From Escherichia phage vB_EcoM-UFV09, in sequence record MZ291552.2: 64,000 bases of DNA. The stretch is one strand, 5' to 3'. Numbering within the stretch: position 1 is the stretch's first letter; every line of letters starts with the position of its first letter. Under the pieces are notes generated by a model. That model was not told the DNA's origin. It saw only the letters and a program-made list of their open reading frames with translations, and did not search any database. Positions 2,200 to 61,644 of the stretch are shown piece after piece. Both the position numbers and the translations under genes were made by a program.

Positions 2200-2403
2200 T
2201 TAATTCATATTACGCTTAATAACTTCGGCAACTTCTAGTAGTTCATCTTTAGTTGCGGTGTCGGATTGAATTTTATCTCTAATATCCTTAAAGCGGTTTT
2301 TAAATTCTTCGGCTTCTCCCATATCGAAAAAGCGTTGAATGATTCTATATTCTCGATGAACTGCTTTATCAAAAAGTTCTAAATTTACTTTATATGATTT
2401 CAT
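2200..2403 (-). CDS. small hypothetical protein (rIIA.1 position)
   Basis: 67-aa ORF immediately upstream of rIIA; assignment by position only. Confidence 0.5.
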
Positions 2404-2428
2404 TTCAATATCCTCATTTGCCCAATTA

Positions 2429-2458
2429 ATTATACCACATCCTTGTGGTAAAGTAAAC
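2429..2458 (-). promoter_or_regulatory. T4-type early promoter (GTTTAC, ~18 nt, TATAAT on minus strand)
   Basis: Minus strand reads aGTTTACtttaccacaaggatgtggTATAATtaatt, just upstream of the rIIA.1 position. Confidence 0.55.
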
Positions 2459-4278
2459 TACTGGCTCATCCATTCTTTACGAAGGTCAGCATTATCTCCC
2501 ATGAGCATTTCAAAAAGCTCTTTCCAATTCTCAGGAAGTTTAACAACATCATATACTGGGTTTTGAATCATCTCACGATATTCAGATTTTTCCAAAGAGC
2601 CAAGTCCTTTAATATAACGGATGCTATGTTTAGGTAGAGCATCTTTGGCACTCTCATATTCAGCGACTGTATAAAACCATTCTTGTTTTTTACCGACCTG
2701 AGCGATGATTACAGGAGTTTTGACAAAGCGAATTCGTCCTTGCTCAAACAATTCTGGCCAATTACTAAAAAATCCGAGCAGAGAAGGATAAATGCTTCCT
2801 AAACCATCATGGTCAGCATCGGTCATAATAGCAATATTATGATAATTCAAGTTTTCAGCTTTTTCACCAAGAACTAATCCAGTGATTGCGCAAATATCAA
2901 ACAGTTCTTTGTTTTTAAGCATATCAGCATATGACATACCCCAGCTATTAAGAACTTTACCACGCAATGGATAACCACCGTGAAGTTCTTTATCACGAAC
3001 ATCAATAAGATATCCGATAGCAGAATCACCCTCAGTCAAGAAAAGAGTAGTGTCAGCATCTTTACCACAAAGATTCGCTTTGATATGTTTATGAACCTTA
3101 GCTTTAGAAGCCTTTTTAGCTGCTTTAGTTTCTGCTGCTTTTTCTGCCGCCAATTTACGAGCAAGGGCAGCTTCAATGATTGGCATTAAAATTGCTTCAT
3201 TATTTAGAATAGCGCGTGAAATCTTTTTAGCATCAAGTTGAATATGACTACGAATTTCGCCAAATGGAGAAGTCAAACGCTCTTTAGTTTGAGAATCAAA
3301 TCGCATGTTTTTCATATCACGGACAAACATAACGATAGTCAAACATTCTTTGACACGTGCTTTAGTCACATCAATTTTGAACTTACGTTTGATTTGTGGA
3401 ATAAGGTCTTCACAAATATCATCCATAACACAGTCAATGTGATGGCCACCATTCTTAGTGTGAATGTTATTCACATAAGTTAATTGACGAAATCCATCCG
3501 GTGAACGACCAACAGCAATAGAACAATTTTCTTGTTCTTGAACAATAGCATGTTCATCATACTGTCGTGCATATTTCTTAAAATTGCCCTGAACCTTTTT
3601 ACCATTAAAGGTAAATTGAATATCAGGATAAACAACAGCAAGTGTCTGGAGACGATCTAGTGTAATGTCAAGATAAACTTGGGACAGCTCATTAGTTTCA
3701 AATGACATAAAATCTGGAATGAAAGTAACACGAGTTCCTTTCCATTTTCCAGGAATAGTTTCCCAGGATTTATTTTCCATGCCATTTGAACAACGAACTA
3801 CAATATTATTTTGACCATCGCCAGTTTCACCGACAAACATCACAGAAAAAATGTTAGTTAAACTAGAACCAACACCATTCATACCACCGGTGACGCGTTC
3901 TTTATCATCACCAAAGTTACCACCCGCTTTTGGAATAGTCCATGCAGCAACAGGACCAGGAATTTCTTCACCGGTAGGTGTTTTAACCATCGCTTGCGGA
4001 ATACCGCGACCGTTATCTTCAACTGTCACCTGATTATTTTTAATGGTAACATTAATTTTATTCGCGAATTTAAACTTAGTACGAATACCTTCATCGACTG
4101 AGTTATCGATAATTTCATCAATAAGCTTAACAAGACCAGGTACATACTGAACACTTTCCCATTTACCAAACAGAAAGCGCTCATGCATTTCATTAGCAGA
4201 AGAGCCAATGTACATGCCACTACGCTTTTTGATATGTTCAATATCGCTCAGAATTTTAATTTCATTCTTAATCATCAC
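2458..4278 (-). CDS. 39: DNA topoisomerase II large subunit, uninterrupted form (GyrB-like ATPase plus Toprim)
   Basis: 606-aa ORF; N-terminus matches recalled T4 gp39 and continues without interruption into the gp60-equivalent C-terminal region. Confidence 0.9.
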   Translation of the reverse strand: MMIKNEIKILSDIEHIKKRSGMYIGSSANEMHERFLFGKWESVQYVPGLVKLIDEIIDNSVDEGIRTKFKFANKINVTIKNNQVTVEDNGRGIPQAMVKTPTGEEIPGPVAAWTIPKAGGNFGDDKERVTGGMNGVGSSLTNIFSVMFVGETGDGQNNIVVRCSNGMENKSWETIPGKWKGTRVTFIPDFMSFETNELSQVYLDITLDRLQTLAVVYPDIQFTFNGKKVQGNFKKYARQYDEHAIVQEQENCSIAVGRSPDGFRQLTYVNNIHTKNGGHHIDCVMDDICEDLIPQIKRKFKIDVTKARVKECLTIVMFVRDMKNMRFDSQTKERLTSPFGEIRSHIQLDAKKISRAILNNEAILMPIIEAALARKLAAEKAAETKAAKKASKAKVHKHIKANLCGKDADTTLFLTEGDSAIGYLIDVRDKELHGGYPLRGKVLNSWGMSYADMLKNKELFDICAITGLVLGEKAENLNYHNIAIMTDADHDGLGSIYPSLLGFFSNWPELFEQGRIRFVKTPVIIAQVGKKQEWFYTVAEYESAKDALPKHSIRYIKGLGSLEKSEYREMIQNPVYDVVKLPENWKELFEMLMGDNADLRKEWMSQ

Positions 4279-15386: not shown

Positions 15387-15394
15387 GTATTTAT
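15387..15394 (-). promoter_or_regulatory. late promoter TATAAATA for soc
   Basis: Exact TATAAATA on the minus strand about 30 nt upstream of the soc start. Confidence 0.6.
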
Positions 15395-15537: not shown

Positions 15538-16056
15538 TTAATAACCTCGGTCTTGACGTGCGAAATTTTCAGCATTTTTCAGATAATAAAGTTTAAAGAT
15601 TTCTTCTGCTGTAAGACCAAGACCCTGGAACATATTCAGAACGAAATGAAGAATATCAATCATTTCAAATTTAATTTCTAACTGGTCTTGTGGAGACAAA
15701 TCAGTAATCAGAGTTTCACGACGTTCACCATGCTGCGACTTCCAAGGTTTCCATACAGCAGATGCGTCTTTTTCACCATTACTCATACCACCAAGAGAAG
15801 TCAGAAGTTCACGGAATTCATCGTCAATATAATCTTTCTGATTACGCAACCAATCAACAACTTCACCGGCAGTAGCTAAGTCATCAGGATGACGATTATA
15901 TTCAGGTTTATCTTTAGCTAAACGAACCTGCAAAGATTTCTGCATATCAAGCATTACCTGCAGCGGGTCTTTTTCATCGCCGAGAATATCCCAATATTCA
16001 TTTTGAGCTTTATCAGCGCCTTCAATCAGTTGTGAACATTCGTTAAAGTAAGCCAT
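15538..16056 (-). CDS. 56: dCTP/dCDP pyrophosphatase (MazG-like dCTPase)
   Basis: Start trimmed to MAYFNECSQ... (~172 aa, T4 gp56-sized); the longer track ORF reads through upstream sequence. Confidence 0.8.
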   Translation of the reverse strand: MAYFNECSQLIEGADKAQNEYWDILGDEKDPLQVMLDMQKSLQVRLAKDKPEYNRHPDDLATAGEVVDWLRNQKDYIDDEFRELLTSLGGMSNGEKDASAVWKPWKSQHGERRETLITDLSPQDQLEIKFEMIDILHFVLNMFQGLGLTAEEIFKLYYLKNAENFARQDRGY

Positions 16057-16127
16057 TATTTTTCCTTTCAATTCATGGGTTAGTAGATTAATTATACAAT
16101 AAATATATAAAGCAATAAGGAGGACAT

Positions 16128-16328
16128 ATGGTACAAAAATTAATGGCACTTGTTAATGCCATCAAAGGTAATAAGAAACGTATAGCTTTTACTATTTCTG
16201 CTATGGTAGGAATTTTACTCTGGAACTTTATTTTATCACCAATTGCAATTGCGCATGGTGTTAATATTCCAGTAGTTACTCTTGATACATTCGTAGATCT
16301 AGCATTTGCTTTAGTTGGGTTGATTTAA
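16128..16328 (+). CDS. small hydrophobic protein on the plus strand
   Basis: 66 aa, two predicted TM segments; strong AAGGAGG Shine-Dalgarno 4 nt upstream of ATG; fills the 56-61 intergenic gap. Confidence 0.45.
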   Translation: MVQKLMALVNAIKGNKKRIAFTISAMVGILLWNFILSPIAIAHGVNIPVVTLDTFVDLAFALVGLI

Positions 16329-17353
16329 ATCTTAGCATATTTAGATAGCCGCATTTTAGCCATCAACCCCTGGGCAATATTATTTTTCATATATTCCATA
16401 ATTTGTTCAGGGGTTGCACCTTCCTTTCTAATCATATCATTAACATCTTTAGATTTCCAGGGAGATTTATCCCAAAACATAACCCTTTCTCCTGCATCAA
16501 CTAATTTAGTCATTCGTTTGATAGTGTCAGGGTGACGAGGTTCATTATCTAAAACCCACACTCGTCTATCTTTAAATGGAACAATTTCTAGGTCTAATTG
16601 ACCACCCGTAATAGCTATACCATTTTCAATAAAAAGTGAATCTATAGGTCCTTCTAGAACATATACATCGCCATCTTTAACTCGTTCGACTCCATAGATT
16701 TTTGTTGCCTCAGGATAAGCTTTAATGGTGATATATTTTTGAGGAGCATTTTTCTTTAATGCACGCCCTTGAAACGACTCGGCTTTTCCGTTAGCATTAT
16801 AAATTGGAATAACAAGACGAGGCTCAGGTATTTCCTTTTTATATGTTCCCGGTGCTATGCTATTAACCAATTTAGGCCATTCGGTTGTAAACCAAAGATA
16901 TTTCCATTTATCCTTTGGAATACAACGAGCTTTTACGTATTTTATAATTGGATGGTCTTCCGCCAGTTTATCTAATCTAACACATGACGGAAGAGATTTA
17001 ATTATTTTCTTCTCAGGTTGTTTAGGAAGTTCTTTAGGTTTTTCTACTGGACGACTTTTACCTTTTTCTTTTCTTATTTCAAAGATATACTCACGATATA
17101 AATCAGGTTCAAACTCCTTTAAATATATTCCGATTGGTGCGTGATAGTTACAGTTATAACAATGAATATTTCCTTCATTATTATCACCATAATACCATCC
17201 ACGAGCTTTATTCTGGTCGGTTTTTGAATCTCCACAAACGGGGCATCTAAACCGCAATTTAAAAGTTGAACTATTATTTACTTGTGTGAATTTAGGTAAA
17301 TGAGCCAATGCACGATACGCAAACTCATTATCAATCCAAGGTATTGATGACAT
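16325..17353 (-). CDS. 61: DNA primase
   Basis: 342 aa, zinc-ribbon CPVCGDS...CYNC N-terminus; matches recalled T4 gp61. Confidence 0.9.
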   Translation of the reverse strand: MSSIPWIDNEFAYRALAHLPKFTQVNNSSTFKLRFRCPVCGDSKTDQNKARGWYYGDNNEGNIHCYNCNYHAPIGIYLKEFEPDLYREYIFEIRKEKGKSRPVEKPKELPKQPEKKIIKSLPSCVRLDKLAEDHPIIKYVKARCIPKDKWKYLWFTTEWPKLVNSIAPGTYKKEIPEPRLVIPIYNANGKAESFQGRALKKNAPQKYITIKAYPEATKIYGVERVKDGDVYVLEGPIDSLFIENGIAITGGQLDLEIVPFKDRRVWVLDNEPRHPDTIKRMTKLVDAGERVMFWDKSPWKSKDVNDMIRKEGATPEQIMEYMKNNIAQGLMAKMRLSKYAKI

Positions 17354-17521: not shown

Positions 17522-17878
17522 TTAACCTCTATTCATAAAAGCATTAAAAATTTGGTCATCAATCGATGGAATAGCAACTTTTTCTGCATCATTTAGCAAA
17601 TCATTAATTTCATCAGATAGCATAACACATGTACCTTTATTTCCTGTAATTGTTACTGCACAATTACGAACGTTTTCTTTATTAAATTTTAGGTTAATAT
17701 TTTCGTAATGAAAATCCTTTAATGCTGAATATATTTTTAAAATAAAATTGTCTTTTACTACAATAAACCCAACCTCACTATTAAAACGTGGTTCATGGAA
17801 ACTGTAATAAACCTTTTCATCTATAAAATCGTATGAAATTTTTTCCATTTTTAAATATGAAAATTCAGAACTATACAT
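17522..17878 (-). CDS. hypothetical protein (61.1/61.2 region)
   Basis: 118 aa; C-terminal tail SIDDQIFNAFMNRG shared with the next ORF. Confidence 0.45.
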   Translation of the reverse strand: MYSSEFSYLKMEKISYDFIDEKVYYSFHEPRFNSEVGFIVVKDNFILKIYSALKDFHYENINLKFNKENVRNCAVTITGNKGTCVMLSDEINDLLNDAEKVAIPSIDDQIFNAFMNRG

Positions 17879-17879
17879 A

Positions 17880-18521
17880 TTAACCTTTATTCATAAAAGC
17901 ATTAAAAATTTGATCGTCAATAGAAACTTTTACTTTAGGATGTTCTTCAAACGGTAATTCATATCCACATATTACAATTTTGTGATCGATACCAAAATAC
18001 ACAGAAGCAATATGATTAATATTATTTTCAGTGAAATCTAAATCAACATCAATATCTTTTTGACTAACGCTCAAAGGATAATTAATACGAATAATTCGAT
18101 TATCTTTAACAAAGATTCCACCGACATACTCTGTGTTGCGTTTAAAGTTTACACGTTTCCTAAATGAAAAATATTCAGGTTCTTTATGAGCCCGACTCAT
18201 AGGACACAATGAGTAGCTAGAATAAGAGATGTCAAATCCTACACCTTCAATATGAGCCAACGTGTCATGATTAAACCAATTATAATCATACGCCAAATCC
18301 ATTATATTGTAATATGTGAAAGGCACCGGATTAACATCATATATTGTACCTTTAAAATCTGCCCAGGCAACGATTTCATTATCTTTAACAATTACAAAAA
18401 TTGTGCCAATAAGATATCCACGGTTATTTTCATCAGGCGTTATATTATAACATTGTGCATCAGGAAATTTACCGTATTTAAACGGTGGATTTTTGTGCAT
18501 ATAATAAATCATATTATTCAC
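17880..18521 (-). CDS. hypothetical protein (61.1/61.2 region)
   Basis: 213 aa; C-terminal tail SIDDQIFNAFMNKG shared with the previous ORF. Confidence 0.45.
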   Translation of the reverse strand: MNNMIYYMHKNPPFKYGKFPDAQCYNITPDENNRGYLIGTIFVIVKDNEIVAWADFKGTIYDVNPVPFTYYNIMDLAYDYNWFNHDTLAHIEGVGFDISYSSYSLCPMSRAHKEPEYFSFRKRVNFKRNTEYVGGIFVKDNRIIRINYPLSVSQKDIDVDLDFTENNINHIASVYFGIDHKIVICGYELPFEEHPKVKVSIDDQIFNAFMNKG

Positions 18522-31515: not shown

Positions 31516-31523
31516 TATAAATA
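31516..31523 (+). promoter_or_regulatory. late promoter TATAAATA on the plus strand
   Basis: Exact TATAAATA about 34 nt upstream of the plus-strand HNH gene start. Confidence 0.55.
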
Positions 31524-31556: not shown

Positions 31557-32273
31557 ATGAATTATAAACTAATTTATGAAAAGTTAATCTCTAATGCTAA
31601 ATCTCGAAAACTTGATTGCTATACTGAATCTCATCACATTATACCGCGCTGTTTAAATGGAAGTGATGATGCTTCAAACTTAGTAGATTTAACACCAGAA
31701 GAGCACTATGTAGCTCATCAACTTTTAGTAAAAATTTATCCTTCTGAACCAAAATTAGTCTATGCTGCTAACATGATGACAGTTTCTACGAAATACGCTA
31801 AACGCAACAATAAAACTTTCGGTTGGATTCGTCGTAAACTCTGGGAAATAGAAAAGAACAAAGAATTCTCCCAGGAGACACGAAAGAAAATGTCTGATGC
31901 AGTAGCTAATAAAGCAAGATTAACTTGTCCTCATTGCGGTAAGTCTGGATTAAGCGGAAATATGAATCGTTGGCATTTTGATAACTGCCCAAATCACCCT
32001 AATCCTAAAATTAGACCACCAATGTCTAAAGAACACAGAAATAATATCTCAAACGGGCTTAAAGCAATCGTTCTTGAAGAAACATCCTGCGAATTCTGCG
32101 GAATGATAGGCAAGAAATGCGTTATCGCAGCGCATAGAAATTTCTGCAAGAAAAATCCAAATGGACGCAAGAAAACTGAAAAGACTGGTACTTGCGTCCA
32201 TTGTGGTAAAGTTACCACTTTCGGAAATTTATCAAGATGGCATAATGATAACTGTAAATATAAACTTAGCTAA
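31557..32273 (+). CDS. free-standing HNH homing endonuclease with three zinc-finger-like repeats
   Basis: 238 aa; N-terminal HNH motif ESHHIIPRCLNGSDDASNLVDLTPEEHYVAHQ; three CxxCG...RWH.DNC-type repeats; opposite strand to its neighbours. Confidence 0.75.
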   Translation: MNYKLIYEKLISNAKSRKLDCYTESHHIIPRCLNGSDDASNLVDLTPEEHYVAHQLLVKIYPSEPKLVYAANMMTVSTKYAKRNNKTFGWIRRKLWEIEKNKEFSQETRKKMSDAVANKARLTCPHCGKSGLSGNMNRWHFDNCPNHPNPKIRPPMSKEHRNNISNGLKAIVLEETSCEFCGMIGKKCVIAAHRNFCKKNPNGRKKTEKTGTCVHCGKVTTFGNLSRWHNDNCKYKLS

Positions 32274-43885: not shown

Positions 43886-43926
43886 AATAAACCCTTACCT
43901 TAAATAGATAAGGGTATTTATTATTT

Positions 43927-57048: not shown

Positions 57049-57261
57049 TCATTTTTGTCCTGTATTTACTTTATGCCGATGCACGGCCTTAACTTTATCA
57101 AGGTATTTTTCAAAATTTCGCAATCTAGTATAGTCTGCCGGAGATTGGTTGAGTGATACTTCTCGACGCAAAGCTGAAATGATATTTCCAACTTCCCTAC
57201 GAATTTCATCTAATTGAAGCACAGTAAGATTGCGAAGTTGCTTTTCAGTTAATTGTAGCAT
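57049..57261 (-). CDS. small hypothetical protein (rI.1 position)
   Basis: 70-aa ORF. Confidence 0.4.
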
Positions 57262-57303
57262 ATATACCCCTTTAGTTAGATAAACCTATTTATAACTTTT
57301 GCA

Positions 57304-61104: not shown

Positions 61105-61282
61105 CTAAACGAATAGGTTCATGAATGCCATATCCCTGAACAGAAATTTCTGTCGTAGGATAAATTCCATCAATATCACCCATATTCCAGGCTTCGTTAA
61201 ATTGCTGTTCGCCTGAATTACTAAACCACTCGGCGAAAGCATTTAGCACATCTTTAGAACCTTCAATAATTATCTTTGCCAT
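61061..61282 (-). CDS. small hypothetical protein
   Basis: 73-aa ORF. Confidence 0.4.
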   Translation of the reverse strand: MAKIIIEGSKDVLNAFAEWFSNSGEQQFNEAWNMGDIDGIYPTTEISVQGYGIHEPIRLVEYDLCTGEEVKYD

Positions 61283-61644
61283 TACAAACTCTCGGTAAAG
61301 GTACGAGCGATAACGTCGCGCTGCTGTTCCGGAGTCAGAGAGTTAAAGCGAACTGCATAACCGGATACACGGATGGTCAGCTGCGGATATTTTTCCGGAT
61401 GCTTAACTGCATCTTCCAGAGTTTCACGACGCAGAACGTTAACGTTCAGGTGTTGACCACCTTCAATTTTAACTGTAGGCTGTTGCTCAATTTCAATTTC
61501 ACGGGCATGCAAACCGTAGAAAATTTCTGGGTCTACAAAAGAGTCCTCTTTAAAAGTTTTAGAGACAATAATTCGTGCTTGAATACCATCTTCAAAATAA
61601 ATAGTACCTTTATGCGTGCCTTCAAGAATTTGATATGCTTTCAT
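61282..61644 (-). CDS. autonomous glycyl-radical cofactor (GrcA/YfiD-like)
   Basis: 120 aa; C-terminal ~60 aa including glycyl-radical motif [25 protein letters not shown] closely resemble E. coli GrcA; T4 carries a known homolog (Y06Q). Confidence 0.85.

Follow-up and report, generated by a model that had tools for sequence, protein, structure and literature searches.

A conserved, probable small membrane protein gene with a late-type promoter between genes 56 and 61 of T-even-type phages

The locus and the question

Does the gap between genes 56 and 61 in a T-even-type phage contain a genuine protein-coding gene, and if so, when is this gene likely to be expressed and what kind of protein does it encode? 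The question arises in the window, that is, the whole stretch of 64,000 nucleotides analysed here, which is a Tequatrovirus segment with 100% identity, over the 601 bp tested, to Escherichia phage vB_EcoM-UFV05 and its siblings. The gap spans 268 bp (16057-16324) and, opposite to all the neighbouring genes, which are on the minus strand, carries an ORF for a hydrophobic protein of 66 aa (GRAVY +1.25):

15538-16056, minus strand: gene 56 (dCTPase), the left boundary of the gap, with the ATG at 16056 and a protein that starts with MAYFNEC
16098-16105, plus strand: late-promoter-like box AATAAATA, the TATAAATA consensus with A at -13, 22 nt before the ATG
16117-16123, plus strand: Shine-Dalgarno sequence AAGGAGG, separated by 4 nt (ACAT) from the ATG at 16128
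16128-16328, plus strand: coding sequence, stop codon included, of the 66-aa small membrane protein (PHROG 2024; RB32ORF030w, RB69ORF029w)
16325-17353, minus strand: gene 61 (DNA primase), convergent with the 66-aa ORF

A sequence-only reading of this region had described the 268-bp gap, the hydrophobic 66-aa ORF, AAGGAGG 4 nt from the ATG and the AATAAATA box, and all these details were reproduced. The same reading regarded the ORF as a possible antisense-encoded membrane peptide. The ORF is indeed located on the opposite strand but is not antisense to a gene: the coding overlap with gene 61 is only 4 nt, with overlapping stop codons (16326-16328 for the ORF and 16325-16327 for gene 61). The length of the ORF is not above chance, as indicated by spurious ORFs of 95-121 aa in the same ORF listing. 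What is above chance is the conservation of the protein together with its dN/dS, the conserved ATAAATA motif and the approximately 7-fold depletion of this heptamer. Conservation, purifying selection and the conserved Shine-Dalgarno and late-promoter motifs strongly support a real membrane peptide with its gene on the opposite strand; with high probability, the ORF is a genuine coding gene for a small membrane protein under a late-type promoter.

The gene as such is already known. RB69ORF029w, RB32ORF030w and PHROG 2024 are the same gene, with no difference, and it appears as 'hypothetical protein' in hundreds of records. What is new here is the sequence-based case for probable late expression, the predicted topology, the breadth of the family and the gap in the T4 annotation.

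Conservation and selection

A tblastn search matches the ORF in 692 phage records, and in 686 of these, the match covers at least 80% of its length, so that the conservation across T-even genomes, which the sequence-only reading had named as a check, holds for an intact ORF. About 500 Tequatrovirus records show 90-100% identity, and about 190 records from other genera (those examined belong to Mosigvirus and Gaprivervirus) show 44-56% identity. Distant versions are present at the same locus in Dhakavirus VR5, Pectobacterium phage PM2 and a Klebsiella phage, for which the loci were fetched, and identity to the window protein goes down to 17-28% in Dhakavirus, Mosugukvirus, and Klebsiella and Enterobacter phages. 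A profile search yields 120 clusters that fall into three subtypes, all of which match PHROG 2024. The window protein itself matches the HMM of PHROG 2024 with E = 1.5e-31 (residues 2-66 aligned with all 65 profile positions), and 33 of 33 diverse relatives match it as well. Five residues (M1, W32, N33, P38 and G44) are invariant across the family alignment, A40 and P48 are nearly invariant, and position 53 is almost always acidic; the most conserved stretch corresponds to codons 32-57. A phmmer search against 1.84 billion representatives returned 9 matches, of which three were judged compositional, being long repetitive proteins with many matched stretches.

The dN/dS across relatives, the other comparative check proposed in that reading, points the same way, at about 0.1 within genera. 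Nei-Gojobori estimates range from 0.08 to 0.15 for Tequatrovirus and give 0.13 for Mosigvirus; comparisons between genera show saturation at synonymous sites, with dN at about 0.4. Summed over three independent within-genus pairs, the non-synonymous share of changes is 36% vs the expected 75% (binomial p = 3e-9), and third and first codon positions hold most of the variable sites. The ORF evolves faster than its neighbours, with 55% identity to the Mosigvirus version compared to 74-80% for gp61 and gp56, as is usual for accessory membrane proteins.

The family has also undergone duplication. Gaprivervirus phages VR26 and VR25 carry tandem paralogues, subtype A followed by subtype B, that are separated by 8 nt (2495-2901 of the fetched loci). 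The second paralogue is truncated at the 5' end in DK-13 and in another genome (about 1735-1870 and about 2735-2900 of the fetched loci); in DK-13, the truncated copy is located beside a homing endonuclease gene. Altogether, T-even-type phages have in this ORF a genuine accessory gene, the product of which has 63-74 residues and is predicted to reside in the inner membrane.

The upstream region and the probable late promoter

The box upstream of the ORF had been described as a near-late-promoter sequence, which is right but understated. Among 50 listed T4 late promoters, 32 have the perfect TATAAATA and 9 have A at -13, whereas most of the remaining ones carry another single deviation from TATAAATA (PMC2988020); because A at -13 is found at 9 of these 50 sites, AATAAATA represents the commonest natural variant. 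In each of the 14 loci checked, ATAAATA precedes the ATG by 12-22 nt, within unrelated flanks. The base that precedes it can be A, G, C or T, and the perfect TATAAATA is present in three of the 14 loci; the T4 box is GATAAATA at 17709-17716 and the Gaprivervirus box is CATAAATA, both of which are rarer variants than A at -13. The Shine-Dalgarno core GGAG/GGAGG is likewise found in the same place in all 14 loci, in the form TGGAGG in two Enterobacter-type loci.

The heptamer is strongly depleted in this DNA. There are 6 copies of ATAAATA on both strands of the 64-kb window vs 40.2 +/- 6.2 in shuffled sequences, a depletion of about 7-fold, and ATAAATA is the rarest among the 21 permutations of its letters in the window. 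The copies are:

15388-15394, minus strand: ATAAATA
16099-16105, plus strand: ATAAATA
31517-31523, plus strand: ATAAATA
43915-43921, minus strand: ATAAATA
57287-57293, minus strand: ATAAATA
61597-61603, plus strand: ATAAATA

Five of the six are located 20-35 nt upstream of a Shine-Dalgarno sequence and an ATG on the same strand. The genes behind these five copies are soc, the 66-aa ORF, an HNH endonuclease, gene 49 (endonuclease VII), which is known to have a late promoter, and a 70-aa ORF at 57261; the box upstream of soc is annotated as a late promoter in a relative. The depletion of ATAAATA, with the remaining copies nearly all located before start codons, provides a practical late-gene finder in T-even genomes. 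The HNH-type homing endonuclease gene (238 aa, 31557-32273, plus strand), which has a perfect TATAAATA 33 nt upstream of its ATG, is a second plus-strand gene in a minus-strand region. The remaining copy belongs to an orphan AATAAATA (61596-61603, plus strand) that runs antisense across the start of a minus-strand 120-aa ORF (61282-61644) and is not followed by any plus-strand gene; this box has either survived by chance or acts as an antisense late promoter.

The T4 gene soc, a late gene within the same early region, provides a parallel in regulatory logic. Similarly to the 66-aa ORF, soc is short and has a TATAAATA-type box of its own, located 20-30 nt before the Shine-Dalgarno sequence and the ATG, and it sits among early and middle genes, about 800 bp from the 66-aa ORF. 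In contrast, soc is encoded, like its neighbours, on the minus strand and its product is a soluble capsid decoration protein, whereas the 66-aa ORF runs the other way and is predicted to specify a membrane protein.

Late transcription of the 66-aa ORF is very likely, judging from the motif, its conservation and its genome-wide depletion. Late in infection, the host RNA polymerase, carrying the late sigma factor gp55 of the phage together with gp33 and the gp45 clamp, would open AATAAATA at 16098-16105, with a predicted plus-strand transcription start near 16111, a position deduced from that of the box. The resulting mRNA would have a leader of about 16 nt, and the strong AAGGAGG would bring ribosomes to the ATG at 16128.

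Predicted topology and possible functions of the protein

The protein is predicted to contain a single membrane helix followed by a short tail:

16182-16253, plus strand: predicted transmembrane helix (IAFTISAMVGILLWNFILSPIAIA), codons 19-42, with the invariant W32-N33 and P38
16254-16325, plus strand: predicted periplasmic tail, codons 43-66, with a conserved loop and the hydrophobic helix 52-65

The Kyte-Doolittle mean over 19 residues reaches 2.0 across residues 19-41, and hydropathy places the membrane helix at residues 19-42. An AlphaFold2 model based on a 33-sequence alignment has a pLDDT of 79 overall and about 85 for the helix at 15-42; it consists of helices 2-11, 15-42 and 52-65 (14 residues in the latter), with a loop at 43-51. 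The conserved pattern of the tail loop is H/Q-G-x-x-(L/I/V)-P-x-V-x-x-(D/E). In 31 of the 33 family members, the net charge is +1 to +5 for the N-terminus and 0 to -3 for the tail. Given the positive N-terminus and the neutral or acidic tail in nearly all members, the protein is predicted to be a single-pass inner-membrane protein with the N-terminus in and the C-terminus out. As the modelled C-terminal helix is only 14 residues long, the protein could also form a hairpin in the membrane, with its two ends in the cytoplasm. Under the preferred single-pass topology, the basic N-terminus (K4, K13, K16, K17 and R18) would stay in the cytoplasm, one helix (approximately 19-42) would span the membrane, and a tail of about 24 residues, with its HG-x-x-P-x-V-x-x-D/E loop and short hydrophobic helix, would be exposed in the periplasm. 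The invariant Trp-Asn pair in the middle of the helix and the Asp present in the membrane helix of subtype B suggest helix-helix association in the membrane, either of the protein with itself or with a partner.

Searches for known functions with the 66-aa protein gave no matches in Pfam, NCBIfam or PADLOC, only weak membrane-helix matches (E of 0.1 or more) in a sequence profile search of the PDB, and only family members or nothing in Foldseek comparisons with BFVD and the PDB. Based on the timing and the location, the favoured role of the protein would be to adjust a late envelope event, such as lysis timing, lysis inhibition or membrane integrity, but this is a guess that is more likely wrong than right. 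A broader and less probable proposal is that the protein is an unrecognised late envelope factor, either a modulator of lysis timing or inhibition or a counter to a membrane-based host defence, combined with a temporal switch at the promoter. If so, an envelope factor would have been overlooked because the T4 reference lacks the gene, and occupancy by the late polymerase would shut off middle transcription and priming at the gene 56 promoter in phages without dam.

Several phage proteins are comparable in kind. Lambda S, the S21 pinholin, and T4 T, RI and RIII are small, late inner-membrane proteins that engage in helix-helix association, but the likeness to the 66-aa protein is in kind only. 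The T4 proteins Imm and Sp (spackle), whose genes are located close to genes 61 and 42, are likewise short, dispensable accessory proteins directed to the envelope. However, Imm and Sp are products of early minus-strand genes that function in superinfection exclusion, whereas the 66-aa ORF, to which neither is similar, has a late-type promoter and is read from the other strand.

In one alternative reading, the product is a lysis protein, either of the holin type or regulating a holin, by which membrane lesions are formed or gated. A small protein with one helix that contains polar residues (N33, and Asp in subtype B) and a predicted late promoter would fit this function; one automatic UniRef entry for the family is named 'Holin', and 6 of the 33 relatives weakly match phrog_11161 ('holin'). 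The three matching relatives that were checked belong to subtype C, with the best E = 7.9e-4, and short hydrophobic segments often yield weak profile matches of this kind; the window protein itself has no holin match in PHROG, Pfam or NCBIfam. Apart from these weak subtype C matches to phrog_11161, the protein has no significant sequence or fold similarity to the small lysis proteins. The name 'Holin' is one among hundreds of 'hypothetical' entries in a family that has also been misnamed 'DNA packaging ATPase' and 'dCTP pyrophosphatase'. Furthermore, the gene is located among replication genes and not in a lysis cassette with an endolysin or a spanin, and its positional counterpart in the relative Bas37 is non-essential. 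T-even phages already have the holin T and the antiholins RI and RIII, which also counts against another holin. A holin-style dual start (M1 and M6) was considered and rejected, M6 being confined to Tequatrovirus, so the family has no conserved dual start, unlike the small lysis proteins. Thus, a holin or holin regulator appears to be an unlikely identity for this product.

The gene 56 middle promoter, oriA and the minus-strand hairpin

In addition to the plus-strand gene, the gap contains two predicted minus-strand elements:

16091-16113, minus strand: MotA-type middle promoter of gene 56, with GCTT at 16113-16110, a 13-nt spacer and TATAAT at 16096-16091
16130-16165, minus strand: terminator-like hairpin (stem-loop 16165-16140) and T run downstream of gene 61

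The same promoter element is annotated as a middle promoter in the relative OL960581, and it corresponds to the promoter that precedes gene 56 in T4, beside the annotated oriA. In this genome, which lacks dam, the late box on the other strand is located inside the 13-nt spacer of the middle promoter, and the predicted plus-strand start, at about 16111, falls within the MotA box. With the late box inside the spacer, the two promoters probably cannot be occupied simultaneously. In T4, about 900 bp, with the dam gene, lie between the late box and the middle promoter of gene 56; Mosigvirus and Gaprivervirus have the two next to each other but not interleaved.

The hairpin consists of 11 pairs, 3 of which are G-C, and lies, together with the T run, inside codons 1-13 of the plus-strand ORF, with the hairpin itself at codons 4-13, so that both strands of this stretch are put to use. 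Its folding energy in Tequatrovirus is -9 to -14 kcal/mol; Mosigvirus and Gaprivervirus lack the hairpin, i.e., it is Tequatrovirus-specific among the genera compared. Two records, from two groups, annotate this hairpin as a terminator. Located at codons 4-13, it could hamper initiation of translation of the ORF in Tequatrovirus.

The association of this neighbourhood with the oriA replication origin in T4, which the sequence-only reading pointed out, is borne out by the T4 record. The latter puts oriA at the 5' end of gene 56, at 16763, inside the gene, and gives the gene 56 transcript as the oriA primer RNA. An origin-related role of the plus-strand transcript, which that reading had offered as the alternative to a membrane peptide, finds no such support: in T4, the whole dam gene is inserted between oriA (16763) and the ORF (17738-17938), no iterons or other tandem repeats were found in the gap, and it is the amino acid sequence that is conserved. 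A search of Rfam detected no family match, and a single sub-threshold miRNA match was dismissed.

Another alternative is that the functional product is a plus-strand late RNA, acting by antisense shut-off of primase or by forming an R-loop near oriA, with the ORF being incidental. No convincing plus-strand terminator was found after the ORF (fold z = -0.85 vs shuffled sequences), and therefore the late RNA may run antisense into gene 61, on which the 66-aa gene always converges. An inverted repeat at 16364-16416 was examined as a candidate plus-strand terminator and rejected because it is not followed by a T run. T4 late transcripts of either polarity and sites transcribed on both strands are known (PMC2988020), and oriA is reported to be more active late (PMC3016281). 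However, an RNA-only function leaves unexplained the dN/dS of about 0.1 and the saturated synonymous sites between genera, and it does not account for the invariant residues at 17-28% identity, the conserved Shine-Dalgarno sequence and the tandem protein paralogues. The ORF is separated from gene 61 in DK-13 and TH40, and from oriA by dam in T4; there are neither Rfam matches nor repeats; and a cis-antisense RNA is hard to reconcile with a 4-nt overlap with gene 61 and with conservation that follows the codon frame. An RNA-only product is, on this evidence, very improbable, whereas an antisense effect on top of that of the protein is possible. The least credible reading, to the point of being negligible, is a chance reading frame that appears conserved due to minus-strand signals (the terminator of gene 61 and the promoters of gene 56 or dam): AT-rich phage DNA does give many spurious ORFs of this size, and a terminator-like hairpin and a middle promoter are present in or beside the ORF, but the hairpin covers codons 4-13 only and is absent outside Tequatrovirus, the promoter is upstream of the ATG, the most conserved codons contain no predicted signal, and the substitutions follow the plus-strand frame, which is open in 686/692 records. 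The gene for a small membrane protein remains the preferred interpretation.

Annotation in T4 and dispensability

The gene has the same position, strand and size in RB69, RB32, RB51 and RB14, and the exact protein sequence is present on 154 contigs. T4 has an intact copy at 17738-17938 with two different residues. Nevertheless, the gene is missing from the T4 records NC_000866.4 and AF158101.6 and from a T2 record; in the T4 reference, the 309 bp that lie between dam and gene 61, and contain it, carry no annotation. In an automatic re-annotation of a T4 derivative, the gene is called. Because the T4 annotation omits it, the gene went unmeasured in three genome-wide studies of T4, namely a time-resolved transcriptome and proteome, a CRISPRi-ART knock-down screen and the T4D arm of a transposon-sequencing screen. 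A literature search found no paper on ribosome profiling or gene re-annotation of T4 and none that mentions ORF030w or ORF029w. Standard tryptic proteomics would miss the protein as well: as predicted from the sequence, trypsin leaves one hydrophobic 48-residue peptide past R18, and the only peptide of usable size is LMALVNAIK.

A transposon-based data set for another phage provides information on dispensability. In the Tequatrovirus Bas37, bas37_0144 is a 201-nt plus-strand ORF with a 4-nt overlap with primase (HIDEN-SEQ preprint, 10.1101/2025.11.20.689424), and was assigned as the counterpart of the 66-aa ORF by position, size and strand alone. According to the supplement of the preprint, 20 of its 24 TA sites were hit by insertions, and the gene is assigned to the class 'Non-essential'; no significant change is given for it in two comparisons, and the main text does not highlight it (10.1101/2025.11.20.689424). 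Judging by this counterpart, the gene is dispensable for plaque growth on laboratory E. coli.

The interest of the locus is modest, and lies in the T4 annotation gap and in the late promoter that is interleaved with the gene 56 middle promoter in phages without dam. Given that T4 is the reference organism of this phage group, adding the gene to its annotation is cheap and would open a further, probably late membrane protein to direct tests.

Variation of the gene neighbourhood

In all loci that contain it, the gene lies between those for dCTPase and primase and runs opposite to gene 61. In most of these, it meets gene 61 at the 3' end of the latter, the two overlapping by 4 nt to about 24 nt; in TH40 they are separated, and in DK-13 a homing endonuclease is inserted between them. 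On the gene 56 side of the ORF, there is dam in T4 and mobE, beside the ORF, in VR5, and the Klebsiella and Enterobacter phages have a 94-aa gene beside it. The gene is absent from those of the relatives examined that belong to Krischvirus, to Slopekvirus (KP15) and to the Acinetobacter, Aeromonas and Providencia phages.

The phage analysed here has no dam in the corresponding interval (16057-16127), whereas in T4, dam is located between gene 56 and the ORF (2287-3238 of the fetched locus). In a megablast search, 396 of the 672 matching records had at least 80% query coverage in one place, i.e., they share the contiguous layout without dam. Identity to T4 is only 73% for gp56 compared to 99% for gp61 and 97% for the small ORF, and the break in similarity to T4 falls in the gap between gene 56 and the ORF. 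In T4, a word that contains the -10 element, AATTATA(C/T)A, is found on both sides of dam, which suggests that cassettes might have been exchanged at these promoter repeats. In the window, segF is not next to gene 56.

Finally, in the Enterobacter-type relatives, a Soc domain and a GDSL lipase domain occur together in one protein of about 500 aa (about 197-1711 of the fetched loci, minus strand), the gene for which adjoins an ordinary soc gene.
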